Below, in pieces: positions 7,486 to 44,344 of a DNA stretch of 64,000 nucleotides. Below the pieces are notes generated by a model. That model ran no database searches. It was not told the DNA's origin and was given only the letters and a program-made list of their open reading frames with translations. The stretch's first letter is position 1. The number at the start of each line of letters is the position of its first letter. Origin of the DNA: Escherichia phage BB1; sequence record NC_106597.1. The stretch is one strand, 5' to 3'. Both the position numbers and the translations under genes were made by a program.

Positions 7486-7907
7486 TATTGAGTTACCCCA
7501 TCGCTAATATAAACTTTGCCTTCCATAATACGGAAAGAGCTAGCAGCGCTACCAACAGCTGTTCTAGTAATTATAACATCGTAGTATCCAGCTAACCTTT
7601 GTCTAGGATTATACCTATCTCTTTCTTTAGATGCTTTAGATGCAATAGTAGTTACAGCATTAACAGGTAAACTTATAGATGCTACACCTTGTTTAGCATC
7701 TATAATAGAAGTGGTAAAGGATGCTAAATTTTCAGCCCCATCCTCTAAACTACTCTTAATACTTCCTCTAAGAGAGAAGCCAGTAAGATCTACTGGCTTA
7801 GATGTAGCAGGATAAACACTATCATCTACATCCATAAATTGCATAAGTAAACCATAAGGTACGTTTTCGTCTACTACTAAATCAATAACTCTATTTTCTG
7901 TACTCAT
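7485..7907 (-). CDS. tail collar protein (p132-like)
   Basis: 140 aa, start overlaps the tail-fibre stop; length and position match T5 p132. Confidence 0.5.
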
Positions 7908-7912
7908 TATTT

Positions 7913-10051
7913 TTACCTTATATGGATATACCCGTTTTGCAGGTCTATCTTCATTTTGTAAGATCCCTCTGGATTAGAGGATAGTGCGGCTGCACGATCA
8001 TATATAATATTTACACCAATTTGTGATAAGAAAGCGTTATTAGCAACAATTTTACTAGCAGTTACCGTACCATTAACTATCATATCACCATGTAAAACCA
8101 TTGCAGGGCTAGCCCATGCTGAACCATTCCACTGCCTAGTGAATGCTGTTCCTGGTGCCCCACTTTTATACTCGGTTAATACATCATATTTAACAGGACC
8201 AGTACCAAAATTAGATGTAAAAAACGAATTAGCCTGAGAATCATTCCATGCCGTTAAGTTAGCAATAGCAAGAGAATACATTCCAGGACCACGTTGTCCG
8301 TCTGCTCCTGGCCGCCCATCAGCACCTGGTTTTCCATCGGCACCTGGTTTTCCATCAGCACCTGGTAGTCCATCAGCTCCCGGCTTACCATCTACCCCTT
8401 CTGTACCGCTCCATTGAACTACATCTGACCAACTAGTTCCGGATACTAATTGATTAGTAACAGGGTCCAGAGTACCCGTAGAACAGTAAATATTCTGAGT
8501 ATTAGATATTCTATTCGGCGGAGTTTTAGACCAACCAGAAGGTGGGTATGCAGGGCTTGTTGGTTTAGCAGGTAATGAAGTACCTAGAATATAAATAAAT
8601 ACTGTTTGCTTACCTTGTATACCTGTTTCTATATCAATATCGCCATTAGGTGTACCAATTACAACTCCACTAGAAATTCTTAATGTATCACCATCGAAAC
8701 GAATATATTGCGTAGCATTACCAATATCTACTTTTGGCTTCGCAGTAGCATTATCCATGCCCATCCAAATACCAGATTTTGTATCTCCCCAAGTTTTACC
8801 TTGAGTATAAATTGCTGGGTTGTCTTGACCAGTTAAGTTAGTCATTACAAAGTTCGCAGCATTAATGGTTTTAGTTATTACACTTCCATCAACGTTAATT
8901 ATCTTTTTAATAGGGTCAAAAGATATTGGTGCTTTTCCTTCTGCATCTAGAAGACCTATATTAATAGCACCTGTAGCAGCATCTATTAGGAAGGTTTGTT
9001 TCCAGGTAGATCCATCTTTGATCTTACCCTTAATGTACGCGTAATTTACTTCGATACCAGTTTCATTAACAAAACTATTATCTAATGGAGTACTCTCATT
9101 TAATATAAATGTCTGTACTGCGGAATCAGTAACATCTTGAGCATCTGGTCCCCAGGCAATAGATGACACTTTAAATTTATGCTCTACTTTCCATGGAAAT
9201 GATATAATTGTTGCTGACTGAGCAGCACCCACGTTGATTTTTTGTGCCTTAGTCCATCCAGTTCTAGCAAATTCTGCTGAATCTATATATGATAGAACGA
9301 ATTCACGAACGTTGGCGCCTGTCCCTCTATTCCAATCCCATTGCACACGTAAATCATAGCGTTCTTTACCATCCGCTATACGCGCAGCTTTAAACACAAT
9401 ATTAACAGGAGCTGTAGGAGGTACAAAGTTATATCTAACTTCAAAGACAGTAGGATACTCATAGTATCCAGATGAATCAATAGTTACTCCGTCTGGCAGG
9501 GATACTTGTCCAGAAATTCTTACCTTATAGGATCCGATTGGCACACCACCAAACATAATAGTTGGCATCAACGCACCAACATAATATTTAACCCACGGAT
9601 TATTAGCATTAGAATTATTTTTTAATTCTATAGTACAATAATCAGCTTCTCCTGTAGTATCTATATAAACTATTGGCGCTCCAACACCTACGTCTACAGG
9701 CTCTGATTCACATCTAACACCTGTAATTCTAGGTGCTGACTTCATTTTAAAAGTTTGTTTATCAGATAGATTAATACCTATCTGAGCATTAAGTAGTTCA
9801 GAGTCTATTATAGAATCATAAAATGCACCCTGAACTTCATAAGTTGTTGTAGGTTTTAAGTTATTAATAGTTACAGAAAAGGTATCAACTCCAGTAAAAT
9901 CTCTACGAGTAACGTTGCTACCTTCTTTAAGCCAAAAAGATCTACCTATAACGTCATAATCAGAATAGATAGAATGCTGGATATACGCCAACGTATATCC
10001 AGTTAAGACGCTATTTAGAACCATTTTAGCTGGTGCATTATTTGAAATCAT
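7913..10051 (-). CDS. baseplate / central fibre protein (pb4-like) with collagen-like repeat
   Basis: 712 aa; contains [36 protein letters not shown]; position between collar and baseplate hub genes. Confidence 0.6.
8285..8400 (-). repeat. collagen-like G-X-Y coding repeat inside the pb4-like gene
   Basis: Three near-identical copies of ggttttccatc(g/a)gcacctggt on the plus strand encoding the GKPGADG heptad. Confidence 0.7.
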
Positions 10052-12901
10052 TTAAATAGTAGCCCAACCAACAGATTGCTCACCATTTTCCCCTTCTGCT
10101 CTAATCCTGAATCGTAGTTTACGATTAATTCCTAAAGCACCAGAGTTTAATAGTGCAAAATCCGCCTTATTATATGTTAATAGATAGTCATAGGTATAGG
10201 CATCCTCTATCCTAATACTACGAAGCATTCTATCCTGAGAATCATGTATTTCTAGAGTATAATAAATTTCTGGAATTATTTCTTCCTCGGGTATCTTATC
10301 CCAAGCAAGTTTCACGTCTGGTCCAACAAATTCAGTCACGTCTCCAGAAGCTGTATTAGTTACTCTAAAGTTACTAACTACACTTAAGTTTCTAGCAGAG
10401 TTAAGATCCACGGAAAGGGTAACAGGAGAACTACGTCTACCATTAATATCAACAGCACGTAACTCAAAAATAGCTAAACCAGCAGGCTCACCTATAATCT
10501 CCTGAACCATCCTTTCATTAGGATTATTCTCTAATTGCTGAATTATGTAAGGATCTACATGACCTGAATGAGCTATAGAATAATATACTACGTTATTAGT
10601 AAGACTAGGTAGCCAAGATAGTTCCCCATTTTTACCTATAGCACCTATCATACCACCAGGAGTTGGTGTATACTTAAAGTCCCTAGGAGGAAGTACATTA
10701 TTACTAATATCTGGAATATCATTACCACTGTTATCCACTTGATCAGAGTTGATAAATACATCTTCACCATACTCTTGTAGTGTTAAGTTAATCTTACCAT
10801 CACGAGTATTTTCTACTTCATCTACTAGGAAGAACTTATCCTTCCACCCATAACGCTCATAAGTAAAAGCAATCGGATCATTTGGCTCTATACCAATAAA
10901 CTTATAAGGTACTGAGAAGCTAAGTGTACGTGAGTATCTAGATTTTTTAAGTTCCCTATCTGCATAACTACGAGCAGTGTAGTAGTTAGTAATATTTGCA
11001 AAAGATAGCTGAAGTTTTTTATCCAAACCCTTATCTTGTTCTTTAAACTTAGAGTTATAGAATGTAATAGAGTTTGTTTTCCAACTTAGCGCAGGATCTA
11101 CTAGGGATGCTTGTACTGAGTTAAACTTATTTCTACCAGTAGTATCAGATAAGTCTAAGTCCCCGTAAGTATCTAGAAAACCTATCTTCAAAGGAGTTGT
11201 AGAATGCTTCTCTACAGTTATTCTATACTCACCAGATAAGTTATTTATAGCTCCGCCAAAAGAATCCAGTACTCCTTGAACATTTTTAAATACTGATTCG
11301 GAGGTATCTAATATAGTGTTTAACTGAACTACTTGGCGATGTTCAGAAATAGAATCACTCCAACCAACATATCTCCAATAGGGTTGCCAGCTAATCTGAT
11401 AAGATTCATCAATTATATCTAGAATTTTTGCTTCTGATATAATCTTTTGTAGCGGGAACTGATCCAGAGTTATATTAGCCCCATAACGTTCAGAGGTTAG
11501 ATAGTCCATGAGCTGCCAGATACCGTTAAGGCTAGTTTTATCAGCTTTAACAGACCCATCAGAGCTATATACTTTGACTTTCTTACCTTGTACTTCAGCA
11601 CTAATTTCTGGAATTTCAGTTCTATTCTCATTAATAGTAAATCTAACTACAGCGTAGGCTGTGTCTAAGAGCTTATAACGAGAATCCCAGTATTCTGGGC
11701 CATTGCCATTTTGATTTTGTAAATAGAAACCCTTTCTTTTAGCGATATCCACTAATACTTGAGCTGCTGTCTGATCTGGTTTGCCATGAAAAGTCCATAT
11801 TCTTATGTCACCATTACCATCATTATACTTATACTCCTGACCATGAACAGAAGGTTGAGAAGTGCTTGTACCAGCAGCTAGTCTATGCATTGTATCACCT
11901 ACTAGTTTCTTACGACCGAAGCAGGTTCTAGTATTGGAATCTGCTTCATCGAAACAGATCATTGGGCTGTCCCCAATATAGAAATCTAGGAATCCATCAA
12001 TTTCTCCTTCCGAAAAAGCATAGACTACATACACTATATTAGGGTTATTTAGCTCAGTATCTGCAAAAATAGGGATACCAGGGATTTTCTGAACCCCATA
12101 TACAACAGGTATAAATTTAGCAGCTAAGTTAAAGTCTAAATCAACTTCTTTAGTTACAGTCTCATAATACTTTTTAAGACTGTAACTTCTTGATAGCCCA
12201 AAAAGTTTCTTCTTGGACTGAAGTTTATAACGCTCTTCTTTTACTTGATATTTAGCTAATATAGTGGTACTTTTATTAGAGTGGAAGAAGCCATAGTCTT
12301 CTTGGTACTCAGGACGTTTAGCACCATTAGAAGGTTGTAATTGTCCATTAACAACTTCAAGCCCTCGGTGGGAAGCATCATCGGTATAACGACCGTTCAC
12401 TCTATCAAAATCATAGAACTGATTAGAACAGTTCCATGTTATAACAGAGGTTCCTATACCGGAAGTACTAACGTTGTCCTTTATTCCGCCGCCAGTAATT
12501 TTACCACGAAAGAATAGTAAAGGTCCATTAGTATCAGGATCTACAGGAAGAATATTACCTTCTTCATCAATTATAGCTTGATGTATAGTGATAGTTCTAT
12601 CTAAGAAAGATACTCCATTTTGAACTAGTTTTAATACTTCATCTTCTGCTGTACCAGTTATGGTAAAAGATAGACTACCAATAGATAGTTCACGGTTTTG
12701 CTTATGGGAGCCGATACTTTTTACTTTACCAGATCTATATAAGATTCCATTATAGGTAACATCTCTAAAGTAGTCAGTTAAATAAACATAAGTAGCAGCA
12801 GAGCCTGATGAACTAGGAAGCTCTAAAGCTATAAGACAAGCTGTTTTTAGCTTGTCATGAGTATTAAGATATGTTTTAGCACTATCGAGTATCTGCTTCA
12901 T
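10052..12901 (-). CDS. baseplate hub protein (pb3-like)
   Basis: 949 aa, same length as T5 pb3; position between the distal tail protein and pb4-like genes. Confidence 0.6.
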   Translation of the reverse strand: MKQILDSAKTYLNTHDKLKTACLIALELPSSSGSAATYVYLTDYFRDVTYNGILYRSGKVKSIGSHKQNRELSIGSLSFTITGTAEDEVLKLVQNGVSFLDRTITIHQAIIDEEGNILPVDPDTNGPLLFFRGKITGGGIKDNVSTSGIGTSVITWNCSNQFYDFDRVNGRYTDDASHRGLEVVNGQLQPSNGAKRPEYQEDYGFFHSNKSTTILAKYQVKEERYKLQSKKKLFGLSRSYSLKKYYETVTKEVDLDFNLAAKFIPVVYGVQKIPGIPIFADTELNNPNIVYVVYAFSEGEIDGFLDFYIGDSPMICFDEADSNTRTCFGRKKLVGDTMHRLAAGTSTSQPSVHGQEYKYNDGNGDIRIWTFHGKPDQTAAQVLVDIAKRKGFYLQNQNGNGPEYWDSRYKLLDTAYAVVRFTINENRTEIPEISAEVQGKKVKVYSSDGSVKADKTSLNGIWQLMDYLTSERYGANITLDQFPLQKIISEAKILDIIDESYQISWQPYWRYVGWSDSISEHRQVVQLNTILDTSESVFKNVQGVLDSFGGAINNLSGEYRITVEKHSTTPLKIGFLDTYGDLDLSDTTGRNKFNSVQASLVDPALSWKTNSITFYNSKFKEQDKGLDKKLQLSFANITNYYTARSYADRELKKSRYSRTLSFSVPYKFIGIEPNDPIAFTYERYGWKDKFFLVDEVENTRDGKINLTLQEYGEDVFINSDQVDNSGNDIPDISNNVLPPRDFKYTPTPGGMIGAIGKNGELSWLPSLTNNVVYYSIAHSGHVDPYIIQQLENNPNERMVQEIIGEPAGLAIFELRAVDINGRRSSPVTLSVDLNSARNLSVVSNFRVTNTASGDVTEFVGPDVKLAWDKIPEEEIIPEIYYTLEIHDSQDRMLRSIRIEDAYTYDYLLTYNKADFALLNSGALGINRKLRFRIRAEGENGEQSVGWATI

Positions 12902-31579: not shown

Positions 31580-31744
31580 TTTGGAAATCTCGAAATTTCA
31601 TAAGATTACACATGGAGGTGTGCCCAGTGGGTCGGGGGAGAATACTTAGTCTGCTAACCGCCACCCCCCGTTACTATTAGCAGGGTAATTGTTTCATCCT
31701 GCAACCATTTTAATCGCAGGATGAAATTATTTCAACTTTAATTA

Positions 31745-32479
31745 TTACGCAACTTTTAATTTCTCAATATATTGTTGCGGGCTGCAACTATATTCTGCGC
31801 GTTCTTCCTCGGTCATACCTTCCCAGCATAGTTTTAAACGGTCAGCTAGGAATTGATAATCATTATCATCGTCGAGCGATTCATCAATAAAGGTTTCACC
31901 TATTAATGTTACACCTATTGATAGAATATCATTAACGGCTTGCGCGTCCAGCGTTTTAAATCCGTATGATGCTGCCGCCGATAGCACACCTTTATGATCA
32001 TCAATCATTGTAAAATCAGCGTTCGGATATAACTGTTTAAATAATTCAAAATAATAAGATTTATATACTGCGTCTTTGCTGTGGTATATTTCGCTAACTT
32101 TATCAGCTTTAAAATATTTATGCAGTGTGTCGCGGGAAAATACGCGGATATTGCTATTTCCTCGACCTCGCAAGCCTTGTTTGCGCAAGAAATAATAGTC
32201 CGACTTACTCATCAATCGAGCGGTGCAAATAATGTTTAAAGTATTTGCATCATTCATGCACTGGCGCATATATTCAACCAATGGCAATAAAGTATCTTGC
32301 ATTATTAAATGATGTTTGCAGGCTTCATTTTTATATTTATTTAAATCTAAATTGCCCTCATTATCAAAGCAAGGCGCTACACGATGGAAAGAATTAACGA
32401 TAGTGCCGTCTAAATCCCAAATCATGACGCGGGAAATATGCGGGAAATTACGGAAAGAATTAATAATAGATTTATTCAT
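31745..32479 (-). CDS. dmp: HAD-family 5'-deoxyribonucleotidase (Dmp-like)
   Basis: 244 aa; HAD motif I WDLDGTIV near N-terminus; length matches T5 dmp. Confidence 0.6.
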   Translation of the reverse strand: MNKSIINSFRNFPHISRVMIWDLDGTIVNSFHRVAPCFDNEGNLDLNKYKNEACKHHLIMQDTLLPLVEYMRQCMNDANTLNIICTARLMSKSDYYFLRKQGLRGRGNSNIRVFSRDTLHKYFKADKVSEIYHSKDAVYKSYYFELFKQLYPNADFTMIDDHKGVLSAAASYGFKTLDAQAVNDILSIGVTLIGETFIDESLDDDNDYQFLADRLKLCWEGMTEEERAEYSCSPQQYIEKLKVA

Positions 32480-32558
32480 TTGTTACGTTCTCCATTAAAG
32501 GGATTTAGTTATTTCAGCATTACCCGCTATTTATAAGCGGGTAATAATAAATTAACTA

Positions 32559-32954
32559 TTAAAGACCATAAGCCAACGCATCGGCAATAAAACTAACATC
32601 CTCACCTGATACGCTGGAACGAATACCAGCACAAGTATATACTTTTGCACTGATCAATTGATCATCAAGGCAAGCGGGGCAAGGCGCGACAACTGCAAAG
32701 GCAAGGCCGGATTTTACGGCGTCGATGATAATCGTTTCTTGCTTCACCGTATCAACATAAACACCTTTTGCTTTAATATGACTGGTTAGTTTGCCCTGCG
32801 TATATGCGAATGTTGTAACCTGTAAAGCGTCATTGAAATCTAATAGATCATCAATAACATGCCCCGCCTCGACGTGGTAACGTTCGCCGTTAGAATAAAC
32901 CAGAACAATTGAGGATTGAGCGCGGTCAAATGGGATGCGATTAGATTTAGCCAT
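32559..32954 (-). CDS. hypothetical protein
   Basis: 131-aa ORF in the pre-early block. Confidence 0.4.
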   Translation of the reverse strand: MAKSNRIPFDRAQSSIVLVYSNGERYHVEAGHVIDDLLDFNDALQVTTFAYTQGKLTSHIKAKGVYVDTVKQETIIIDAVKSGLAFAVVAPCPACLDDQLISAKVYTCAGIRSSVSGEDVSFIADALAYGL

Positions 32955-32990
32955 GTTTATAACTCCAGTTATTTTAATAAGGAATTTAAT

Positions 32991-33281
32991 TTATTTGATA
33001 ATAATCTGCATTTGGTACGGCGTTAATTCACCGTTTACGGGTAAATTATTATCACTCAACCATTCATAAAAAGCGTCATCATCATCAAAAGGAACAACAT
33101 CATTATCACGATAATCGACCGTAATAATACCATCAGTATTAGTTTTAGCGGCTAGGATAGGCCCGAAGCTGTAAACTTTATCGGATTCCATTTCATCCGG
33201 TGAAATGAATGCTTTTTCGTCCAATGTTTTGGGTAGTGTAACTTTCATTTTTTGACTCCTGTAATAGCGGCTATATTTCAA
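32991..33281 (-). CDS. hypothetical protein
   Basis: 96-aa acidic ORF. Confidence 0.4.
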   Translation of the reverse strand: MKYSRYYRSQKMKVTLPKTLDEKAFISPDEMESDKVYSFGPILAAKTNTDGIITVDYRDNDVVPFDDDDAFYEWLSDNNLPVNGELTPYQMQIIIK

Positions 33282-33302
33282 GCCGCTAGGGGAATAATTT
33301 AA

Positions 33303-34967
33303 TTATGCGAAGAATTTACCATTCTTAAAGTCGATCAAAGTACGCTGACCGTTTGCATAGGTAATTAAATGCGTTTGCGTCCAGCTTGACGCGCCAACGT
33401 TGTAACCCATATCCAGACTACCAGCTACTCCAGCGGTATAAACGCCACCGTAAATGCTAGCGGTATGGGTGTGTCCCGTGTTTAGCTTGCCCAATTTCTT
33501 AAACTGTTTAGGATTGCCACGACTGCCGTTAATGCCGTTGTGACCGTGTACACCGCACTCAATGCCTGCAATCTTGAAAGATTGGTCAGTGGTTAGGAAA
33601 ATGGCGTTAAACTCACAACCTGCAACCTTGCGCAGCGCATAATCTAGCACGTTAAAAGTATCATCATGATCACTGATCGCCGCGTAAATTGCAGCATTCA
33701 GGCGGTGATATAGTTCGGCGTTGGCTGGATCGTCTTTGATGTTAGCATTACGATCATCTAACCAGCGGGATAGCGCCAAATCGTGATTAGATTCAACAAT
33801 GATTGTTTGAGAGAAATCACGTTCCATTGATTCCAGCACGCGCCCCGTATCGATAAGATCATCCAGAACTTTATCACGTCCAGCGGCATACTGTTTTGCT
33901 AGGAATACACCGGATGCACGGTTATGATGATTGCGCGATGTAAAATCATGCACGTCATGAATAAACTGATATTTAGGTTTAAGAATATCAAGCAAGCTAT
34001 TTTCGCCAGCCCATGACGCAACGGCACAATCATCATCTAATTTTTCGGCGTGAATATCGCCATATTGCAAGCCTAAAACATGCCCCGACGTTTCATAGCA
34101 TCCAGCAGGAGTAGCGCAAACATTCAGATCATAAAACACCCCGCTTTCATCCATCGTTTCAAGCTGGCGAACAAAAAATTCCCCGTCGTCGTCGAACTCA
34201 ACAATAAGCGCACCGAAGTTATGCAGCGCCTCGGCCTTTTGTCCTGCTTTCTGCTGAATGTAGTTTTTGAGCGTTGCCGTTCCGGTTGAATACATACGGC
34301 GCACTACTTCACCTTTTAAAGCTGGCACGCTTTCAGCGGTAATTTTAGCGTGACCAATTGCCAGCCCTTCAATATTTAAAGCCGTTGCAGTTTCTGCAAA
34401 TCCTGAAAGCGGATAGTCTGCGGTAGGCAAAACATTAATTTCAGCCATGAAAGCAAAACGGCGGTTATTTAAAAACACGTTTTTGCTGCAAATATATTTA
34501 TCAAATGCGGGATCGTATTTGATACCGTCTGCACCTTCTCCATTCTGGAAGCCGTTTTTATTATAAATATACTTAGAAACAAGCAAATCAGCACCGATAT
34601 ATTCAGCGAATTTTTCCAGACTTGCTAAAAAGTTTTTATGTGGGAAAGTATTATTCTGAATCGACGTAATAATAAAGCGTTTACCCTGTTTTACTTCCCA
34701 TTGCTCAACCGTACTAGAAACAATCCCCGCCGCTTCTGGGCGCTCATCGTTTTTAATGGCTTTTGCTACTTTTGCCGCTTTCGGTTTAGCTGGTTTATTT
34801 GCTTCCAGCCAGTCGCAGATAGCGGTTGAATGCTTCGTTGTATCGTAGACCGCTTTTGATATATCGTCGCAGACTTCCAGTTTAGTAGCGCGCAGACGTT
34901 TACCATAGAAATTAAAGTCAGCGGCCATTTTCAGGATAACGGTTTGTTTTTCTGCGGAAATAATCAT
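33303..34967 (-). CDS. A1: pre-early protein A1-like (calcineurin-type metallophosphoesterase)
   Basis: 554 aa; metallophosphoesterase motifs GDIHAE, GHNG, GHTH; size close to T5 A1. Confidence 0.6.
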   Translation of the reverse strand: MIISAEKQTVILKMAADFNFYGKRLRATKLEVCDDISKAVYDTTKHSTAICDWLEANKPAKPKAAKVAKAIKNDERPEAAGIVSSTVEQWEVKQGKRFIITSIQNNTFPHKNFLASLEKFAEYIGADLLVSKYIYNKNGFQNGEGADGIKYDPAFDKYICSKNVFLNNRRFAFMAEINVLPTADYPLSGFAETATALNIEGLAIGHAKITAESVPALKGEVVRRMYSTGTATLKNYIQQKAGQKAEALHNFGALIVEFDDDGEFFVRQLETMDESGVFYDLNVCATPAGCYETSGHVLGLQYGDIHAEKLDDDCAVASWAGENSLLDILKPKYQFIHDVHDFTSRNHHNRASGVFLAKQYAAGRDKVLDDLIDTGRVLESMERDFSQTIIVESNHDLALSRWLDDRNANIKDDPANAELYHRLNAAIYAAISDHDDTFNVLDYALRKVAGCEFNAIFLTTDQSFKIAGIECGVHGHNGINGSRGNPKQFKKLGKLNTGHTHTASIYGGVYTAGVAGSLDMGYNVGASSWTQTHLITYANGQRTLIDFKNGKFFA

Positions 34968-35057
34968 AGTAATAAAACTCCATTAAAGGGATTAGATTAA
35001 TAACGGCAATATTGCCAAATATAACGCCTCAAATAATAGGCGTTATAATTTGCAACA

Positions 35058-35255
35058 TTAATTTAAAGGCACTAGGCTAGAACTAACACCACAAGCAACG
35101 GCAGCGATAAAACAAAGCAAGCCCAAACGTTTTGCTAACTTAGATTTACGTTTAAAATAATATGAATCTAAATCATTTTGAAAATAAGCAAATAATAATG
35201 AGGCCGCCATAATAAACAAGCCTAGAATTAATGATTCAGTAGGAAAGAAAATCAT
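35058..35255 (-). CDS. small membrane protein
   Basis: 65 aa, two hydrophobic helices. Confidence 0.3.
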   Translation of the reverse strand: MIFFPTESLILGLFIMAASLLFAYFQNDLDSYYFKRKSKLAKRLGLLCFIAAVACGVSSSLVPLN

Positions 35256-35346
35256 TTTTTAAAACTCCTGATTTAAGGGAAGAAAATAACTATCGCTAAA
35301 CAGTTATATTATTGCCCCCTCACTAAAAGGGGGCAAGGTATAACTA

Positions 35347-35754
35347 TTATTCGCCTGCGGCTTGTTTTACTTCATCGGCAACGCCTAACAGTTGCGCTAC
35401 TGCGTCCAGCGTTTCAAGTTTTGCACTTTCCAGACTTGCCAGATCGTCGGCGTCTTTGATAATGCCGGAATCAATAGCATGTTTAGCGATAACGCGCACA
35501 TAGTGAGCTTTACGCACAGAGCTACCGCCACCAACTTTACGCGGCTTATCGCTTTTTTGATAGGCTTTTGCACTGGTCAATTTTGAGCGAACGGATACAG
35601 GGGAAGCCGCGCCAACTGCTTTTGCAATCTCTTTTAAACCGTCGCTATTTGCGAAATCTAAACCGTTTTCATTAATTAACTGCTGATACATGGAAACAGC
35701 TTTCTGAGTGTTTTCTTCATTCCATGCGAATTTTGCGGTTTTAACGTTAGTCAT
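35347..35754 (-). CDS. pre-early DNA-binding protein, possibly A2-like
   Basis: 135 aa, basic central region; position downstream of the repeat region and upstream of the A1-like gene. Confidence 0.35.
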   Translation of the reverse strand: MTNVKTAKFAWNEENTQKAVSMYQQLINENGLDFANSDGLKEIAKAVGAASPVSVRSKLTSAKAYQKSDKPRKVGGGSSVRKAHYVRVIAKHAIDSGIIKDADDLASLESAKLETLDAVAQLLGVADEVKQAAGE

Positions 35755-35852
35755 GATATAAACTCCTATTAGTTTAATTTAAGGGATTAGATTAACTTAA
35801 TGTTAATCGTTATATCCCCCTGAAATAAGGGGGATATAAAGTTAACACTAAA

Positions 35853-36104
35853 TTACAGAACAGCTTCCCATTTTTCGTTACGTTGAACAACCTTTACAAC
35901 GTCGCCGGATTTAACGCGAACGTTAAAAACAGGTTTGCCGTTGTTACTACGTTCATTTTCAACATATACCGCGTCGATTGTATCAAACGGCATAAGCGCC
36001 GCGCCTTTAATACGTTCGGCCTTTCCGGTTAATTCATCCGTTTTAGTAACGAAAGGAATAAAAACGGATTGACCAATTTTTGGCGCGGTAATAACGTTTT
36101 GCAT
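35853..36104 (-). CDS. hypothetical protein
   Basis: 83-aa ORF. Confidence 0.4.
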   Translation of the reverse strand: MQNVITAPKIGQSVFIPFVTKTDELTGKAERIKGAALMPFDTIDAVYVENERSNNGKPVFNVRVKSGDVVKVVQRNEKWEAVL

Positions 36105-36332
36105 AATATAAACTCCGAGTTATTTGGTGGATTGTTCCGCATTACCTGCTAGAAAGTAGCAGGTAATAAGTAACAATCCGCTCGCCAGTATAATCGATTT
36201 AAAGAACTCCACGTAGGCCGCTATATCCCAGTTAGGGGGCGGGATGCATTATGGTAAGCACCGACCGTCAAATTTTATCAAGTTATCGCTCTTATCGAAC
36301 TGGGTACATCTTAAAACCTATCGGCTAGGTTG

Positions 36333-36536
36333 TCAAGCGGTTTTTTGCAGTTTTTTATGATTTTCTTTCAAGTCAATCATAATATTTCGCCAGATCATTT
36401 CTAAACCTTGCTGGCGACCTTTCTTGTACTGCGTGAATCTATATTTTACTGATCTTTGTGCTACTGTCAACAAGTTTTTTGTTTTGCTATCTAGTGCCTT
36501 AATAGGCTTGCCAGTGATCAAAAGCGTTTGTTTCAT
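36333..36536 (-). CDS. hypothetical basic protein
   Basis: 67 aa, Lys-rich; first ORF downstream of the DnaA-box region. Confidence 0.25.
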   Translation of the reverse strand: MKQTLLITGKPIKALDSKTKNLLTVAQRSVKYRFTQYKKGRQQGLEMIWRNIMIDLKENHKKLQKTA

Positions 36537-36945
36537 ATCGTCGATTCCTTATAATGAATAAGTTTACCGCCGATAGGCTTTAAGATGTACCCAATTTTTA
36601 AAGAGCGTGGCGGTAAACTTCCCGCCGTGTAGTTCGTCATTGCCGCCCTACGAAATAAATAATAGGGGATTCCCGAAAATGGCGCAACCTTATTTTTGTA
36701 AAGAAACGTAAAGACACGATCCACCGGACGGCGTGCGGCGACGGCCTAAAATTAAAAGAAACGGGCGCGCGAATACCACAAAACATAGCAAATAGGCAAG
36801 TAATTTTTTCATTTATATTTACTTTGCCCTACTTGACAAAACCTAAAAAGCTCGTGACAGCGATAAACGGCTTATCCCTTTATGATGAGATGGCTAAAAA
36901 CTTCATCGCGTTCTAGGGCGTTTTAGGCGCATTCTAGCCTTGTTG

Positions 36946-37020
36946 ATAACTTATCCCCAGAAGCAAAAATGAAATTTTCCTAGTTATCCACTTGACTTTT
37001 ATTTTCCAGTGGATAACTAC
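36946..37020. repeat. DnaA-box-like sites with a 12-bp inverted repeat
   Basis: TTATCCCCA (36951-36959); TAGTTATCCACT (36981-36992) and its reverse complement AGTGGATAACTA (37008-37019) around a TTGACTTTTATTTTCC spacer. Confidence 0.6.
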
Positions 37021-37139
37021 TTATTTTATAAAATAAATTAATTGACTTTTATCTGTTAGTATGCATCGGAAAGATAGCAGACTAATAATTGCTAGGATGA
37101 TAATCATGCTGGTGGATTGTAACGGCTTAAATTATTAGC

Positions 37140-37262
37140 AGACTATTAATCACGGAAAATCTCATTAGCCAACTAACTATTTCATGATATATAATATACT
37201 TATAAATTAATGAGAAATAATAATTATAATAAATAATAACTACAGTAAATAATAACTATAAG
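37140..37262. repeat. AT-rich tract with reiterated AATAATAACTA-type units
   Basis: About 120 bp of low-complexity A+T sequence between the DnaA-box groups. Confidence 0.5.
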
Positions 37263-37311
37263 AAACTATCGGCCTAAGTGAGAACCACTATCATTTAAGT
37301 TATTCACAACG

Positions 37312-37408
37312 TTATCCACAGCACAAAATAATTTGACACGATAGGCGGCGATATAAGGACTTTTGCACAGACTTATCCACAGGTTATTCCACTGTATAAA
37401 TATACAAG
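37312..37408. promoter_or_regulatory. two consensus DnaA boxes plus palindrome (left arm of a large imperfect inverted repeat)
   Basis: TTATCCACA at 37312-37320 and 37373-37381, followed by CTGTATAAATATACA. Confidence 0.6.
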
Positions 37409-37674
37409 GTAAAAAGGTAGTGTTAACAACTGCAATCAATTTTGAGCGGCCTAAATCGCATTCTAACGAGCTAAACGCTGCGGAGTAATATTAAAGTAAA
37501 GCCTTAATGCGGCGGCCTGGTGGCTTCACCGTGTTTTGCTCTTTATTACACCGCTGCGCGGTTAGCATAAAATTAGACGCTAGGCAAGGAAAATAAAAAG
37601 GTAAAATAATATTTGCCTATGCTAGAAAATTACCTTTATCATTCACTCACCGATTAACGAGGGAGGCCGAACAA

Positions 37675-38670
37675 ATGAGGCTGTATAAACCAGATAACGC
37701 AACCGTCTTAAAAGGTGCATTGCGCAACCTGCTGGAGGGTAGCAAGTCAACCAGCATTAAACATTTTATTAACAAGGCTGAAACTATTCATCAAAACTTT
37801 TTTGATGATTATGACGGTTATGATATAGATAGTTTTCTACCACTATATAAGCAAGGGGCAACGCTTGTTTTATATAACCGTGATTGCCATATCTTTACAG
37901 GCAGGGGAGCGGGGCCGGATGCCGATTTTATTATTGCGCAGGGCAATAATATTGTTGCGTATCATAGCAATTCAGGCCGTCAATCATTTAATATAAATGG
38001 TTTTGAGCTTATTGGACTTGATCTGATAAATGGACTTTCTAGTATTGAGGGATTTTTAAATGTTATCTGGAAGTATTTACCCGCTGGATGGCATAAGCCG
38101 GATAATGACGGATCTCAATATACCGCTATAATGGCTTTTGATGGCGACGGTAATTTTTTGTTACCACGGGAGCTATACCCGTATATTTATGATGGGGATA
38201 TTGAAAGCGCTGGTTTTTCTTTCTGGAAAGATGAAGATCAGATTATTGACAGTATAGAAAACCATGCTGTAAATTCTAACACTCAAACTACTGAAAACAA
38301 AGGAAAAAATACCATGACTAAGATTGCTAACATCGTTGCCGCTAATAAATCCGCTGTTGTAAATGCTGCAAAACTGGAGGCGGGTAAAATTGCATTAACT
38401 CAAATCACGAAAGTAGCGGCTAAAAAAGCGCCGTTTATGATTAAAGGTTATATTGATACGCCGATTGGTCGTGTAGTGATCGCTAACCTGCTAAGTGTAG
38501 CGGTTGACCAGTACGCACCGAGTAACCAAAAGGCGAAAGCGGTAGCAGGTGCAGCTATGGAGGCGGCAATGTTGGAAATGGTGCAAAGTTTTAACATCGC
38601 TGAAATGATTGATGAAATGGTAAAAGGTATTGATATTTCTACTTTTACCACTAGCACCGAAAGCGAGTAA
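37675..38670 (+). CDS. hypothetical protein (331 aa)
   Basis: SD GAGGGAGG upstream; first gene of the plus-strand island. Confidence 0.5.
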   Translation: MRLYKPDNATVLKGALRNLLEGSKSTSIKHFINKAETIHQNFFDDYDGYDIDSFLPLYKQGATLVLYNRDCHIFTGRGAGPDADFIIAQGNNIVAYHSNSGRQSFNINGFELIGLDLINGLSSIEGFLNVIWKYLPAGWHKPDNDGSQYTAIMAFDGDGNFLLPRELYPYIYDGDIESAGFSFWKDEDQIIDSIENHAVNSNTQTTENKGKNTMTKIANIVAANKSAVVNAAKLEAGKIALTQITKVAAKKAPFMIKGYIDTPIGRVVIANLLSVAVDQYAPSNQKAKAVAGAAMEAAMLEMVQSFNIAEMIDEMVKGIDISTFTTSTESE

Positions 38671-38735
38671 TAATAACTAGCGGGGATTATTTCCCCGCTT
38701 TACTATTCCCTTGTTAACTAATAGGAGGCTAATAA

Positions 38736-39230
38736 ATGGCTGAGGAAAAATACGGCTTCTCGCTAGGGGAAGTGAGCACGGCTAAACACGATATGATCAT
38801 TTTAGTCGATTGTCATACAGGTTATTGCGGAGAAGGTTGGACGGAGGAACATTTTGTTCCTGCTGGTACGGATCTGGACGCTTTCGCTCATGAAATGGCT
38901 GTTGATAATGCTTCTCGTTTTGGTAGCGATGGCTATGAAGACGAAGAAACTGGCGAATGGTATGAAAATGAAAACGTATATGCAAGCCTTTATCATTATC
39001 AATTAAGTAAATCCGGCACATATGTAAACGGCGGCGATCCTATTAATTCCGTCATGAAATTAATTATTAAACATGGTGGCGTCGAGATAATTGATAACAA
39101 AGCGGTAATATATGCAAACCGATTAAAACAGCTTATTTATATTCCTGATAGTACCCGATGGGAGGAATATGCTGTTTTGCATGACGAATTAAAACGATGT
39201 TTCAATATTGAAGCCTTACAAGTAGTCTAA
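38736..39230 (+). CDS. hypothetical acidic protein (164 aa)
   Basis: SD TAGGAGG upstream. Confidence 0.5.
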   Translation: MAEEKYGFSLGEVSTAKHDMIILVDCHTGYCGEGWTEEHFVPAGTDLDAFAHEMAVDNASRFGSDGYEDEETGEWYENENVYASLYHYQLSKSGTYVNGGDPINSVMKLIIKHGGVEIIDNKAVIYANRLKQLIYIPDSTRWEEYAVLHDELKRCFNIEALQVV

Positions 39231-39335
39231 TGTAAAGTTTTGTAAAGGTCGCCTTTTATGGTGGCCTTTTTTGTTATAATGCCTTTACACCAAAACGGTG
39301 GATTGAAAATTTTCCCAAAAATTTGGAGGCTTAAA

Positions 39336-39566
39336 ATGGTTGCTTATTCTTCTGCTAGTCATCTGTTTACCGCGCAAGGCTGGGTATCTAATCGTGCTGT
39401 CATCTATGAAATGGTGCAGGAGTTCGGCATTGCTAAAACCTATAATACCATTCAGGAACTATATAACGCCGATAAAATCGATCAGCAAACGGCTGGCTTT
39501 TTGCTGGATACCCTGAAAGCTGAACATTGCACTAAAAAACAAGCCGCTAAAATTGTTTTAATGTAA
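39336..39566 (+). CDS. hypothetical protein (76 aa)
   Basis: ORF 39258..39566; likely start at 39336 preceded by TGGAGG. Confidence 0.4.
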   Translation: MVAYSSASHLFTAQGWVSNRAVIYEMVQEFGIAKTYNTIQELYNADKIDQQTAGFLLDTLKAEHCTKKQAAKIVLM

Positions 39567-39615
39567 TTAATAACGGGGCGATACTTTCGCCCCGATAACT
39601 AGGAGGCTATCACAA

Positions 39616-39765
39616 ATGGTTATTTTTCGATCTATTTTAGCGGGTATCTTGGGCGCTATTTTATCGTTATTTGCGATAGCTTTCGGCGTTCACGCTGTTA
39701 TTATTGGCGCTGGCATTGCCGTATTTTCTTATCTGTTAGGCTGCATGACTAGTAAAGGAGAATAA
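39616..39765 (+). CDS. small membrane protein (49 aa)
   Basis: Below ORF-track threshold; SD AGGAGG 7 nt upstream; one long hydrophobic helix. Confidence 0.35.
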   Translation: MVIFRSILAGILGAILSLFAIAFGVHAVIIGAGIAVFSYLLGCMTSKGE

Positions 39766-39767
39766 AA

Positions 39768-39980
39768 ATGATTCGTAACGTTTCCCTTGCACGTTCGAAA
39801 GGCTTTAAGCTGGTGGATGTAAACACGTTTGAGCGGGAAGATTGTAAAATCGAATATGTAGCACGTAACAAAAATGCCTTTCGTGTTACCGAGAAAAAAT
39901 TCGACAAGCGCGGCAACGTGATAGCTGAAACAGTTAAACATTTTGCCACCTTTTATGCTGCCTTTCGTGGGGTGTTATAA
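39768..39980 (+). CDS. hypothetical protein (70 aa)
   Basis: Starts 2 nt after the previous stop. Confidence 0.4.
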   Translation: MIRNVSLARSKGFKLVDVNTFEREDCKIEYVARNKNAFRVTEKKFDKRGNVIAETVKHFATFYAAFRGVL

Positions 39981-39981
39981 A

Positions 39982-40326
39982 ATGGTTATTTATGAAGGCA
40001 ATCGCTTTGTTGCTAATTGCCGTCCGGCATTATTAGCAAACTATTTAAATCAGCTTTCCCCAGCCTATAAGGGCGTTATTAATATTTATGAGGGCAAGGC
40101 GCATTATAAAATTAATGCGGTCGTTGCCCGTGAACTAGCGTTTCAATTTTTGACTTTTGCATCTTGTGACGTTCAGGTTATGGGGGAAGCATTAATTGCA
40201 GAAAATGAAGAGGATTTTATTAATATTTTCCGTAAGGTATGCACTGAGCGCTTGATAATGAAAGGCGCGTATATTCAATCAACTGCGGAAAGTATTGAAA
40301 CAGCATTTCGAAAGGTGGCGCAATGA
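39982..40326 (+). CDS. hypothetical protein (114 aa)
   Basis: ORF 39943..40326; likely ATG at 39982 adjacent to the previous stop. Confidence 0.4.
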   Translation: MVIYEGNRFVANCRPALLANYLNQLSPAYKGVINIYEGKAHYKINAVVARELAFQFLTFASCDVQVMGEALIAENEEDFINIFRKVCTERLIMKGAYIQSTAESIETAFRKVAQ

Positions 40327-40392
40327 AATTATATATTTTCGTTGGTAATAGTAAGGCCGCTATTGGCAAAAATATATTTACTAGTGGTTATT

Positions 40393-40587
40393 ATGAGCAA
40401 TAAAATTATTGTTACCAAAACCAGTACAATGGTTGATGTTTTTTACGTTCCCGATACGCCGGAAAACCGACAAGCGGTCGAGCGTGGCGAGTATGATAAA
40501 GTGATTTATGATCACGATGGTTATTATCAACATTTGGTGGATTCCTACGGGGAGGAGGAAAAAATCACGCACCGACTACCAGACTAA
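40393..40587 (+). CDS. hypothetical protein (64 aa)
   Basis: ORF 40342..40587; internal ATG at 40393 more plausible. Confidence 0.35.
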   Translation: MSNKIIVTKTSTMVDVFYVPDTPENRQAVERGEYDKVIYDHDGYYQHLVDSYGEEEKITHRLPD

Positions 40588-40844
40588 TAATCACAGGGCA
40601 CAACTACTAGGAAGTGCCCCCCAATTCTCAAATGAGAATGATTCTCATTTGACCGCGCCCGAGATGGTTAGCCTGCTAATGGTTAGGGTGTTACGTGTCG
40701 CCTTGTGTGATCGTTAGCGAGCTAACCAATTTTTAAGCCTCCTCCAATTTTGCCATTGTTTTAGTATCCCCGCCAAAATTAAACGCGTTAGAATGCGATC
40801 TAGGACGTTTTAACGCTATATTAGAACTATTCACTGCGCAGGAA

Positions 40845-40956
40845 TACTGTATAAATATACAGTAGGATAAGCTGTGGATAAGTCTGTTAATAACGCCTCA
40901 AAATGGCTAGGATTCTGTCAAGTCAAATCGTGCTGTTAATAAGTCTGTGGATAACT
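40845..40956. promoter_or_regulatory. two consensus DnaA boxes (reverse orientation) plus 16-bp palindrome (right arm of the inverted repeat)
   Basis: CTGTATAAATATACAG at 40847-40862; TGTGGATAA at 40873-40881 and 40946-40954. Confidence 0.6.
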
Positions 40957-40974
40957 TAAATAACAGTGTTTCTC

Positions 40975-41160
40975 ACTTCCATTCTTAAATGCAAATTATT
41001 ATCATTTGTATTTCACTATCTAACTAATAATCATTTCACTTTTTAAATGAGAATCGTTTCACTTCCTGAATAATTTTCATTTCACTTTTTAAATGCGAAT
41101 GATTCTCATTATCATTCCGCTTTTTAAATGCGAATTATTATCATTATCATTCGCATTCAG
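40975..41160. repeat. AT-rich tandem repeats
   Basis: Three copies of TTTCACTTTTTAAATG(A/C)GAAT-like units and ATTATCATT reiterations. Confidence 0.6.
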
Positions 41161-41182
41161 GCTAGCAGGGCAATTGCCCTGC
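41161..41182. repeat. perfect palindrome CAGGGCAATTGCCCTG
   Basis: 16-bp palindrome centred on AATT, immediately before the direct-repeat array. Confidence 0.5.
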
Positions 41183-41188
41183 GCTTTT

Positions 41189-41788
41189 GTGCAAATCCGA
41201 CATTGCTCCATGGGTGTTACGTGCGGGCGTGTATGTGCGAATCCGACAATTTTTGGTAGTGTGCAAATCCGACCCGAAAAATTTTTATAGTGTGCAAATC
41301 CGACAATGAATTTTCCTAAAAACTCCAGCAATCACGAACTGCGTTCGAATCCTGTGGGGTATGTGCAAATCCGACATGGTTTTTCTAGGATTAAGATGTG
41401 CGAATCCGACAAGATTTTTGTGACTTCGATTGGAGGGTGTGTGATTGTGTGAGTTTGGGGAGAAGTTGAAAGAGTGAGAGAAATTTGGGGGAACTGCGGG
41501 AGGGGTGCATGTTTGGTGCGGAGCACCTGATTTGCGGGGATTTTGTGGAAGAGTTGAGAAGATTTGGGTTAATTTGAGATAAGTGCAGATAAAGTAAAAT
41601 TTTATTAGCTAAATGGGGCAAAATAGCTTGACAAGTGAAAATTTCTGTGGCTCCAAAAACTCAGGCAATCATGGGCCTTCGGCCCGAAATAATGCTGCCG
41701 TTTTCAGGAGATTATATGTTCCTAAAAACTTAGGCAATTGTGCAAATCCGACCAGTTTTTAAACTCTTGTCAGTGTGCAAATCCGACA
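41189..41788. repeat. array of 8 direct copies of a 14-bp motif GTGC(A/G)AATCCGAC(A/C)
   Basis: Copies at 41189, 41235, 41261, 41292, 41363, 41398, 41740, 41775, all same orientation, irregular spacing; non-coding. Confidence 0.7.
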
Positions 41789-42286
41789 GTAATTTCTAGA
41801 AATGTGTTTTGGAAAAATGTCTTCTAGAAATAACCGCCCTCCCAATAACCGCCCTGTATTAACCGCCTATTGCTGGAGTTTCTAGGAATATGAAAACCGC
41901 CTAAGTTGACTAGAGTTTTCCTAGAAACTTAGGAGTCTAGAAGAAAGTGTTGTGCCATCCTAGCAGATGAGCGGCAACAGGTGTATCATCTTGAACACAA
42001 ATATTGCCTTTAAATATTATAAGGTAAATAAAAGTTAATATACCCCCATTTCATGAGAGTTAGTCCCTCTAGGCGCGTGCGATTTGATACATCCTCCTGA
42101 GTCTCGGGGAGGAAGAACAATTGACGAGAACCTGCGAACAGAACCGTCATCAAGTGTTTTCCTACGAGGAATGATGTAAATCTACGGCCTAGAGGTAAAA
42201 ACAAGTTGATGTTTTTAATCTATGAGATTATTATAACACATTATTCTCACGAATGTCAAGCAAATTTCGTTACTTTTAAATTTTCG

Positions 42287-43015
42287 TCATGAGTTTGGAG
42301 TTGGGTAAATTTTTATGCAACCTTGACTTAATAGATATTTTTCTGCCTCTACAGCTTTAATATTGAATATCTCTTTTGCTCCATCGAATTTATAATGATT
42401 AGCAAATTTATTCTCGAAAAATTTATGTGCTTGGTGTTCTATTTTGTAAGCAAGTTCTTTCGATCCTTTCTTGTACTGGTAGATACCAAATACTTCCATA
42501 TCTTCAAAACCCGGCACACGCAATTTATCATACTCTAGATTCTTAAACCTTTGATGTGGCTCTCTAGAAACCCCAATCTTTGTCTTTAATTTCTTCCTAG
42601 ACTGATCTTTATTAGAGAAGATATAGAGATATGTGGGAAATTGAACATCTTCTTCTACTTCCGGTTTCTCGATAGGTGTATTGAGGTTGCTTTCTCTAGC
42701 ACATTGTAAACAACCGTGCCCATCTAGGTGAGATCTAGCAGTTTGCATAAAGTATCCTTTATGCTTATAGCACCATATCTCTACTAACTGATTGGCTGTC
42801 TTATAATTAACTCTTTCATACCCATACTCTTCTTTCTGGACTTTTAAAGCTTTCCTAATAAAGATAAGGTTTAAGGCCTCTTGTTGGAAGTCAGGGTGAA
42901 GTTGCCTAATCTTCGTTATATTAGTAGAGCCATTTGACTTCAAAAAGTTTTTAAGAGGAAACCTCCTGGCTTCCTCGCGTAGCTTTTTATTAATTTCAGC
43001 ACGTAAATCATCCAT
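42287..43015 (-). CDS. T5orf172 / GIY-YIG-like domain protein, putative
   Basis: 242 aa; YLYIFSNK ... KIGVSRE pattern resembling a GIY-YIG-related core, preceded by a Cys/His cluster (HLDGHGCLQCA). Confidence 0.35.
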   Translation of the reverse strand: MDDLRAEINKKLREEARRFPLKNFLKSNGSTNITKIRQLHPDFQQEALNLIFIRKALKVQKEEYGYERVNYKTANQLVEIWCYKHKGYFMQTARSHLDGHGCLQCARESNLNTPIEKPEVEEDVQFPTYLYIFSNKDQSRKKLKTKIGVSREPHQRFKNLEYDKLRVPGFEDMEVFGIYQYKKGSKELAYKIEHQAHKFFENKFANHYKFDGAKEIFNIKAVEAEKYLLSQGCIKIYPTPNS

Positions 43016-43733: not shown

Positions 43734-44344
43734 TAATTACCTCTCTTATCTTCATTAATAGCAGCTCCCAACGCTTCAAGGATAGTATCACTTATACTCC
43801 CAGGTCTAAGATTATTAAAGTGAGTAACATAGAGGGGACTTTTAAAACCTTCAGCATCCGCAGGTGCTACGCTTCGCATATCAGATTCAAAAGCTTCTTG
43901 AGTATGTTTCAACTGTACAGAAGGGCCGTAATCTTCCCCAAACTTATATGACTTCGTACTACTTACCACACCCCCACAAGGAACATTGTGCATATCCGAC
44001 ATTAACCTTTTATCGGAGTTACTCAGCATTGAGATTGTCCCTGACTGCCACGGATCTCTAATAGTTACAGGAGTACTAGGACGGTTAACCTCAGCCTTCA
44101 CTAGTTTGTATCCTGCATCGATCAGTGCATTAATCAGGTTATCAGCCGGGATGCGAGCCGTGCCAAAAATCTTACGAGCATCTTCGAGCTTACCTTCAAG
44201 ATCTTTACATGCTCTAAGGTCAGTGTGTGCAAATGTTAGCTTCATAGATTTGAGTTGTATAGTAGCAGTTAAATCTTTAAAGCTATAATCCCATGTGTTC
44301 AGTTCATGGTCTGGTACTACTTGAATAGGTTGTTGTGTAAACAT
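43733..44344 (-). CDS. hypothetical protein (203 aa)
   Basis: First gene of the three-gene operon; start overlaps the stop of the upstream small gene. Confidence 0.45.
   Translation of the reverse strand: MFTQQPIQVVPDHELNTWDYSFKDLTATIQLKSMKLTFAHTDLRACKDLEGKLEDARKIFGTARIPADNLINALIDAGYKLVKAEVNRPSTPVTIRDPWQSGTISMLSNSDKRLMSDMHNVPCGGVVSSTKSYKFGEDYGPSVQLKHTQEAFESDMRSVAPADAEGFKSPLYVTHFNNLRPGSISDTILEALGAAINEDKRGN

Follow-up and report, generated by a model that had tools for sequence, protein, structure and literature searches.

How bacteriophage T5 halts after injecting 8% of its genome has been a question since the 1960s, and the mechanism of the signal is still called unknown in papers of 2023 and 2026. 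According to the works cited by Davison (bioRxiv 10.1101/866236), the injection-stop region of T5 was first described in 1987 and confirmed by whole-genome sequencing. That preprint compares 25 T5-like phages and describes two sets of elements, IRC-spacer-IRD and IRD'-spacer-IRC', which flank a variable coding region of about 3 kb, together with eight DnaA boxes arranged in pairs 3 bp apart, nested repeats and, in T5, nine DRD repeats, the repeat region overrunning the end of the long terminal repeat (LTR). It also proposes that membrane-bound DnaA holds the DNA. Here we analyse the corresponding interval, positions 36725-41990, in a stretch of 64,000 nucleotides from Escherichia phage BB1 (NC_106597.1), which we refer to as the window and whose coordinates we use throughout.

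The feature that an initial annotation, made from the letters alone, had singled out in this interval was already known and is a rediscovery of the published architecture. New here is the match of a palindrome, present in both inverted-repeat arms, to the LexA operator consensus, beside the known DnaA boxes; the annotation had correctly recorded the shared palindrome and missed this likeness. LexA and the SOS response are absent from Davison's preprint and from a 2026 T5 preprint, and a literature search found no link between LexA and T5, an earlier mention in papers of 1987, 2005 and 2015 being possible. We propose that DnaA sites and, probably, LexA sites form a composite module in each arm, homologous to the T5 injection stop signal (iss).

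Relationship to the T5 terminal repeat

The interval matches 495 phage records, mostly of Salmonella and Escherichia phages, with 92-94% identity to the closest, and is almost certainly the orthologue of the iss and LTR-end region of T5, repeat boundary included. By alignment it corresponds to "repeat regions 2 and 3" of the T5 LTR, the annotated iss among them. The iss annotation of T5 (NC_005859, 9140-10149) maps to 40579-41583 at about 85% identity, T5 9317-10608 aligns to the window at 85% identity, and the major nick (9748/9749) and the LTR end (10219) of the T5 record fall at 41184/41185 and 41653. The left physical genome end maps to 31621, where position 1 of T5 and position 1 of phage MM-1 both align. 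At the other end, the right unique end of T5 continues straight into the repeat in the window, with the end of the T5 record (121750) at 41653, beyond which the window carries T5 early-region sequence. Because the T5 ends map inside it, the window represents a permuted assembly in which the LTR has been collapsed to a single copy:

31621-41653, unstranded: long terminal repeat, one collapsed copy (first-step-transfer DNA), from alignment to T5 (NC_005859) and MM-1

The region lies at the inner (right) end of the LTR, left of the boundary, as a T5-type iss does. This direct homology bears out the position, equivalent to the injection-stop region of T5 and BF23, that the initial annotation had proposed, and the whole architecture agrees with Davison's description. 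The terminal-repeat boundary that it had offered as an alternative is real as well, at 41653/41654. Its description needs correcting: the interval is not mostly non-coding, as 50% of it codes, and the genes between the arms, by their homology to T5 genes 011-017, are part of the pre-early (first-step-transfer) block.

The DNA is orthologous to that of T5 (about 85-87% identity), and its elements are arranged as in T5: first IRC-spacer-IRD, then the island and IRD'-spacer-IRC', after these the nested AT-rich repeats and the nick palindrome, and finally an array of DRD 13-mers and the LTR end. It differs from T5 in lacking the insertion of the hegG HNH endonuclease (window 37046-37134), in an extra island gene of 164 amino acids (38736-39230) that T5 lacks and MM-1 and EPS7 have, in having eight DnaA-type boxes where T5 has seven, and in the degeneracy of its left-arm palindrome. 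For comparison among relatives, the region was collected from 44 loci, and 32 distinct copies of each arm were aligned.

Inverted arms with paired DnaA boxes

The two arms and their island-facing palindromes are as follows:

37276-37406, + strand: left arm (IRC-spacer-IRD of T5), with four consensus DnaA boxes at 37300, 37312, 37361 and 37373
37390-37409, unstranded: degenerate LexA-like box CACTGTATAAATATACAAGG, on the side of the left arm that faces the island, CAG changed to CAA
40845-40864, unstranded: near-consensus LexA-like (SOS) box TACTGTATAAATATACAGTA, on the side of the right arm that faces the island
40848-40978, - strand: right arm (IRD'-spacer-IRC' of T5), with DnaA-type boxes at 40873, 40885, 40934 and 40946, followed by the conserved block CTTAAATAACAGTGTTTCTCAC

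The perfect DnaA box TTATCCACA occurs at 37312 and 37373 (+) and at 40873 and 40946 (-), all four as listed by the initial annotation; chance would give 0.74 in the whole window, and a count of four came up in 1 of 100 shuffles. That annotation had also described the arms as inverted copies with two boxes each. Inverted copies they are, each of 131 nt and 73% complementary to the other, and each contains four boxes, not two, arranged as two pairs with a 3-bp gap, the pairs 61 bp apart from start to start in both arms. This layout of an arm, an inverted partner and eight DnaA or DnaA* boxes in 3-bp-spaced pairs is that of a T5-type iss. In the left arm, TTATTCACA (37300) and TTTTGCACA (37361) accompany the two perfect boxes, and all four fit TTWTNCACA; in the right arm the two perfect boxes are joined by TTATTAACA at both 40885 and 40934. 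The arms hold six of the nine TTWTNCACA matches in the whole window.

Across Tequintavirus and Epseptimavirus phages, left arms resemble left arms (80-97% identity to the window's copy) and right arms resemble right arms (90-100%), with the right arm the better conserved; within one genome the two are only about 73% alike. The arms are therefore position-specific orthologues, each under its own constraint and the right arm under the stronger one, and gene conversion as the process keeping them alike can be rejected. Variation among the 32 distinct arms occurs where the DnaA consensus permits it. One box position is occupied by TTATCCACA, TTATTCACA, TTATGCACA or TTATACACA and another by TTTTACACA, TTTTGCACA or TTATCCACA, all of which fit TTWTNCACA and differ at its degenerate positions, and two right-arm boxes are mostly the non-consensus TTATTAACA or TTATCAACA. 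From these patterns we infer, with somewhat better than even confidence, that host DnaA binds the arms.

Two further observations concern the arms. Their outer ends (40955-40978 and 37276-37299) contain a nearly invariant block, CTTAAATRAYAGTGKTTCTCAC, with an AGTG-N5-CACT dyad, and the right-arm copy is retained even in Klebsiella-type phages. A promoter within the arms was considered and rejected, the spacer having a conserved TTGACA without a usable -10 partner.

A LexA-operator match at the island-facing arm ends

The palindrome ACTGTATAAATATACA is present in both arms, perfect in the right and degenerate in the left. The right-arm box matches the LexA operator consensus of Gammaproteobacteria, TACTGTATATATATACAGTA (PMC5101192, PMC13203515), at 19 of 20 positions, where 0 matches are expected by chance at up to three mismatches. 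An approximate heterology index, derived from a set of SOS boxes, ranks the two arm sites above all others in the window (1.05 and 7.7), the right-arm site (40845-40864) coming first. The right arm has the SOS-box core, CTGT-N8-ACAG with an AT-rich centre; the left arm of the window does not. CTG-N10-CAG is retained in all 32 distinct right arms and in 27 of the 32 distinct left arms, and the variation of the site falls mostly on two central bases, the CTG...CAG core being kept.

In its 19/20 match, invariant CTGT...ACAG and variable AT-rich centre, the arm site is like genuine LexA operators, and on the same approximate index it scores like the strongest of them. Unlike them, it is a candidate site in a virulent phage, without a recognisable overlapping promoter, paired with DnaA boxes and placed at both ends of the island. 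No convincing promoter was found over the LexA-like box, and the mapped gene-011 promoter of T5 lies about 180 bp away. Taking likeness and retention together, we consider the chances even that host LexA would bind the arm palindrome.

The motif pairing in distant T5-like phages

Using the A1 protein (31-42% identical), we found T5-like phages of Proteus, Aeromonas and Vibrio whose DNA cannot be aligned with the window, providing four loci, two of them from Vibrio. In these phages, CTGT-N8-ACAG palindromes with differing centres adjoin perfect TTATCCACA boxes. Most of the loci have two such clusters, one on either side of a block of genes that lies upstream of A2, and in these clusters the LexA-like box is the part nearer the island. 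Over the four loci there are nine LexA cores (1.06 expected), 18 perfect DnaA boxes (0.7 expected) and six LexA cores within 120 bp of a DnaA box (0.0 expected), values that none of 1,000 dinucleotide shuffles reached, and at each locus the LexA-like 20-mers that score highest lie at these cluster positions. Alphaproteobacterial phages with A1-like genes were considered for a test of whether the LexA motif covaries with the host; these phages are T7-like and lack A2 and a T5-type repeat region, so the test does not apply to them.

A conserved phage protein might read the palindrome and boxes instead, for example A2, the DNA-binding dimer of second-step transfer, in which case the likeness to host operators would be convergent or an exploited mimicry. 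A2 is conserved in all these phages, as the motifs are; box linkers show conservation as strong as that of the boxes themselves; and a perfect palindrome of 18 bp could be read by a dimer. Against this, variation in the arms tracks the degeneracy of the host consensus sequences, and the stop needs no phage protein synthesis (Davison, bioRxiv 10.1101/866236). For A2, a local Pfam library gave no match, and a sequence comparison with solved structures found no relative. A model made from 25 homologues is all-helical (predicted local distance difference test score, pLDDT, 83) without a significant structural match (best Foldseek E-value 0.8), and we therefore rejected the idea that A2 is itself a LexA-like protein. 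Reading of the arms by A2 or another phage protein seems improbable to us, and we favour host DnaA and LexA.

The gene island between the arms

Between the arms lie the following elements:

37447-37475 with partner 40779-40807, unstranded: inner inverted repeat, 29 nt, 83% complementary
37675-40587, + strand: accessory pre-early gene island, seven open reading frames (ORFs)

The ORFs encode a DUF7566 protein (331 amino acids), the 164-residue product mentioned above, small proteins and a 70-residue homologue of the T5 Ung-dependent nicking endonuclease. The T5 homologues of the island, genes 011-017, are dispensable. In Klebsiella phage Sealy (2700-6140 of its locus), two related IMG/VR genomes and one more divergent genome, the island is flipped in both order and strand, and both flanks and both arms keep their left and right identity, from which it follows that the segment between the arms has been inverted at least once in evolution. 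Sealy has a pair equivalent to the inner inverted repeat, and its arm core is 91% complementary (73% for the arms of the window). The standard orientation holds in every Tequintavirus, Epseptimavirus and Erwinia locus examined, and no sign of active switching among close relatives was seen in the loci examined.

These inversions, found in both the Klebsiella-type phages and the more divergent lineage, would fit arms that serve mainly as recombination substrates, conserved flanks for the inversion or exchange of cassettes between co-infecting phages. The high variability of island content between conserved arms and the complementarity of the Sealy arm core point the same way. Such a role would not account for the retention of host-operator motifs throughout the family where sequence cannot be aligned, for the separate conservation of the two arms or for the uniform orientation in the examined Tequintavirus and Epseptimavirus loci, and we give it little credence.

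The island-facing placement of the LexA-like boxes invites another explanation, in which LexA and DnaA bound to the arms would respond to DNA damage or replication status by regulating or insulating the transcription of the toxic island genes, and would play no role in a pause. In every lineage examined, inverted islands included, a LexA-like box faces the island from either side, the island genes include DNA-targeting and toxic functions, and the arms lie between divergent promoters and past the island terminator. Yet the boxes are 270-900 bp from the first island start codon, the left-arm box lies some 180 bp upstream of the mapped T5 gene-011 promoter and not over it, conservation is stronger in the right arm even though in most phages that arm lies downstream of the island, and some phages retain the right arm only (Davison, bioRxiv 10.1101/866236). 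A host-state sensor or insulator of this kind is unlikely in our view, if less so than the recombination role, and a part for the arms in the transfer of the genome is the reading that we pursue below.

The AT-rich tract is not a convincing origin

To the left of the left arm are two further features:

36941-37019: degenerate DnaA-like boxes at 36941 (-), 36951 (+), 36984 (+) and 37008 (-), including a 15-nt inverted pair; "repeat region 1" of T5
37131-37262, unstranded: AT-rich tract between the leftward and rightward pre-early blocks; the T5 hegG HNH gene is inserted beside its equivalent

The boxes at 36951, 36984 and 37008 are the one-mismatch boxes that the initial annotation had found; the one at 36941 was missing from its list. 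It had also placed an AT-rich tract beside the left arm, and this tract contains the lowest-GC 123-nt stretch of the window (18.7% GC).

Its suggestion that boxes and tract form a DnaA-dependent unwinding element, that is, a replication origin at which host DnaA would be recruited to open the AT tract and start phage replication, did not hold up. DnaA boxes are indeed clustered, with oriC-like close spacing, and adjoin the most AT-rich 123 nt of the window. However, no oriC-like 13-mer unwinding motif occurs in 36500-42300 at up to two mismatches, and GATC is absent from 36725-37675 (950 bp, mostly non-coding), compared with 3.4 per kb across the window. The T5 homologue and the literature, on which we judged whether initiation occurs here and whether the region is required, also speak against an origin. 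The mapped replication origins of T5 lie close to the centre of its genome, first-step transfer involves no expression of the replication genes, some T5-like phages lack the left arm entirely, and Davison (bioRxiv 10.1101/866236) argues against an origin. In addition, a 2026 preprint describes a viable, small-plaque T5 mutant deleted from hegG to gene 017. We place this deletion at about 5394-9160 of T5, one primer lying exactly at 9161 and the other, placed by eye, ending near 5393, so that the mutant has lost the AT tract together with the left arm (6098-6228) and the island, and retains the right arm. The region shares with E. coli oriC and datA-type DnaA-box clusters its 9-mer arrays 2-3 bp apart, mixture of strong and weaker sites and AT-rich neighbour, but it lacks the 13-mer unwinding repeats and the GATC cluster, is partly dispensable and is not where T5 replication starts. 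An origin is disfavoured, and we regard it as highly improbable.

Nested repeats, nick site and 13-mer arrays around the repeat end

The remaining features lie to the right of the right arm:

40970-41160, unstranded: AT-rich, G-poor nested repeats and palindromes (DRE/DRC of T5), containing two Fur-box-like matches
41165-41185, - strand: palindrome GCAGGGCAATTGCCCTGC followed by GC; the T5 major nick (9748/9749, - strand) corresponds to 41184/41185
41189-41410, + strand: left cluster of six GTGCRAATCCGAC repeats (DRD of T5), with number, order and orientation conserved across lineages
41411-41640, + strand: G-rich, C-depleted tract that closes the terminal repeat (final ~200 bp), with G at about 36% and C at about 6% on the + strand
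41646-41669, + strand: right end of the terminal repeat, ...TGTGGCTC/CAAAAACTCAGGCAAT at 41653/41654, inside one copy of a 20-nt repeat
41740-41787, + strand: right cluster, two copies of GTGCAAATCCGAC past the end of the terminal repeat

The direct-repeat array reported in the initial annotation is present, as a 13-nt core, GTGCRAATCCGAC, with eight perfect copies in 41189-41787, all on the + strand. At up to two mismatches the core has 11 matches in the window against 1.15 expected, a number reached in 0 of 100 shuffles. All examined loci of Tequintavirus, Epseptimavirus, Yersinia, Klebsiella-type and Erwinia phages have five to seven 13-mers to the left of TGTGGCTC and one to five to the right, in one orientation. 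Two Vibrio phages carry five copies of a related core, GTGCRAAWYC, at the same position, and the Proteus and Aeromonas phages have other repeat arrays there. The G-rich tract is the most C-depleted stretch of the window and holds its longest C-free run (66 nt), a composition kept in all lineages checked.

The ends of T5 (10219), MM-1 (10407) and phiR2-01 (9901), each annotated separately, all fall at the end of the TGTGGCTC motif, and it is by this homology that we locate a packaging end here. The 20-nt repeat TTCCTAAAAACTYMRGCAAT occurs at 41313-41332, 41650-41669, 41719-41738 and 41869-41888 (-), with the repeat end inside its most degenerate copy. For annotators of T5-like assemblies, the end of TGTGGCTC offers a simple landmark of the terminal-repeat end.

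Arrays bound by terminase flank the packaging cut in other phages, as at pacL and pacR of SPP1 and cosB of lambda. The 13-mers resemble these in being direct repeats of one orientation on both sides of a precise genome end, and differ from them in occurring also in the D13 gene and the early region and in having no counterparts near the left genome end at 31621. Judged from position only, a function of the 13-mer arrays in packaging or end formation falls somewhat short of an even chance; within the overall explanation that we prefer, packaging is the likely reading for the arrays themselves.

The same logic could be extended to the whole region, arms included, which would then serve packaging and terminal-repeat formation, with the host-factor motifs incidental. 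The repeat end does lie inside the interval, one-orientation 13-mers flank it in every Markadamsvirinae-type lineage examined, and the conserved G-rich tract precedes it. The right arm, however, is about 680-800 bp from the repeat end, the arms are duplicated some 3.4 kb further in, and variation of the arm motifs obeys the consensus rules of host proteins. It seems rather improbable that packaging accounts for the arms, to which we continue to ascribe a separate role.

Other copies of the 13-mer, and a nearby promoter, were noted in passing. A tandem pair at 835-862 (T5 78936-78963) lies in the D13 (SbcC-like) gene, where it is translated as a repeated VQI[LR]Q peptide, and a single copy at 43988-44000, about 2.7-3.2 kb to the right of the right-arm LexA box, is found in most relatives; a perfect 13-mer is not expected by chance. 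We considered and rejected the 13-mers as nick signals: the T5 nick is 4 nt from the first copy, but the D13 pair is about 360 bp from the nick that the T5 record predicts from a consensus, and there is no copy in the part of the window, roughly 54 kb, where the 18.5% nick is estimated to fall. A perfect sigma-70 consensus promoter (TTGACA, 18 nt, TG-TATAAT) at 42230-42259 (-), about 600 bp past the repeat end, is oriented towards the first of the early genes.

Two sites in non-coding palindromes, at 41095-41113 and 41130-41148, match the Fur-box consensus at 16 of 19 positions and tie with two others as the best in the window, position 40634 being noted along with them; similar matches to the right of the right arm recur at a like relative position in most relatives. 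The DNA is AT-rich and the local-composition P value of about 0.004 was computed after a by-eye look, so these non-coding Fur-like sites are suggestive only. A second Fur-like pair, at 31849-31873 (16/19; 18/19 in Klebsiella-type phages), about 230 bp from the left genome end and likewise recurrent across relatives, was discarded, as it lies inside dmp where the gene encodes a conserved DDDNDYQ run, and coding constraint explains the matches. A search of 36000-42600 for known RNA families gave nothing credible.

A possible host component of the injection pause

The explanation that we find best overall, and hold to be somewhat more likely than not, is that the interval is the right-hand control region of the terminal repeat, composed of three modules. 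In the first, two inverted arms enclose the dispensable pre-early genes of a variable island; each arm is a putative composite site for abundant host DNA-binding proteins, with two DnaA-box pairs and a LexA-type operator facing the island. The second comprises the AT-rich nested palindromes and the conserved nick site that follow the right arm, and the third the one-orientation GTGCRAATCCGAC arrays, which lie on both sides of the exact repeat end, like sites for the terminase small subunit around a packaging cut. We take the right arm as the candidate core of the stop signal, because it is the better conserved of the two, is kept in the viable T5 deletion mutant and lies about 150-200 bp inside the first-step-transfer end of T5.

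On this model, host DnaA and LexA, already present in the cell, would load on the entering DNA with no need for phage protein synthesis, and the resulting nucleoprotein complex would help to hold or mark the end of the first-step DNA until A1 and A2, two proteins of the phage, let transfer resume. The position of the right arm just inside the T5 shear point, together with its retention and stronger conservation, is consistent with a role in the pause. So are the occurrence of the stop without phage protein synthesis and its absence with FhuA proteoliposomes (Davison, bioRxiv 10.1101/866236). That DnaA and LexA complexes contribute to the pause or to its timing is speculative, and we hold it as a tentative possibility. 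To a similarly limited degree we entertain the more specific proposal that the arm palindrome is a functional host LexA operator which, with the DnaA arrays, makes a composite landing pad, the missing host component marking or holding the first-step DNA end; as read from the motifs, it would span T5-like phages of Escherichia, Salmonella, Klebsiella, Yersinia, Erwinia, Proteus, Aeromonas and Vibrio.

Several points weigh against these proposals. The left-arm LexA-like box is broken in the window and in five of the 32 distinct left arms, half of the right-arm DnaA boxes are non-consensus (C6 to A), and the heterology index is only approximate. Box linkers and flanks are conserved like the boxes within Tequintavirus and Epseptimavirus, so that conservation within these genera does not single out DnaA. 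Proteins on DNA already inside the cell would be expected to favour entry and not block it, and a roadblock therefore needs an extra anchoring step. Since recA hosts support the growth of T5, the second step cannot depend on LexA cleavage. Finally, experimental work on these sites is said to be lacking in the 2023 paper, and the mechanism is still an open matter in two papers of 2026.

Implications for T5-like phages

The value of the finding is that of a testable refinement: putatively paired LexA-like and DnaA sites, conserved across T5-like phages, in a region whose architecture had been described. The comparison narrows the question of the T5 pause, in that the right arm emerges as a conserved, retained module, the arm motifs evolve as DnaA and LexA sites would, and their pairing survives in relatives whose DNA can no longer be aligned. 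What had been a vague "complex repeat region" is thereby turned into a short list of testable point mutations and host mutants. If the landing pad exists, its consequences may reach beyond the pause itself: A1 destroys the host DNA, and the landing pad could tie that destruction, through RecA and LexA, to the timing of later events in infection.

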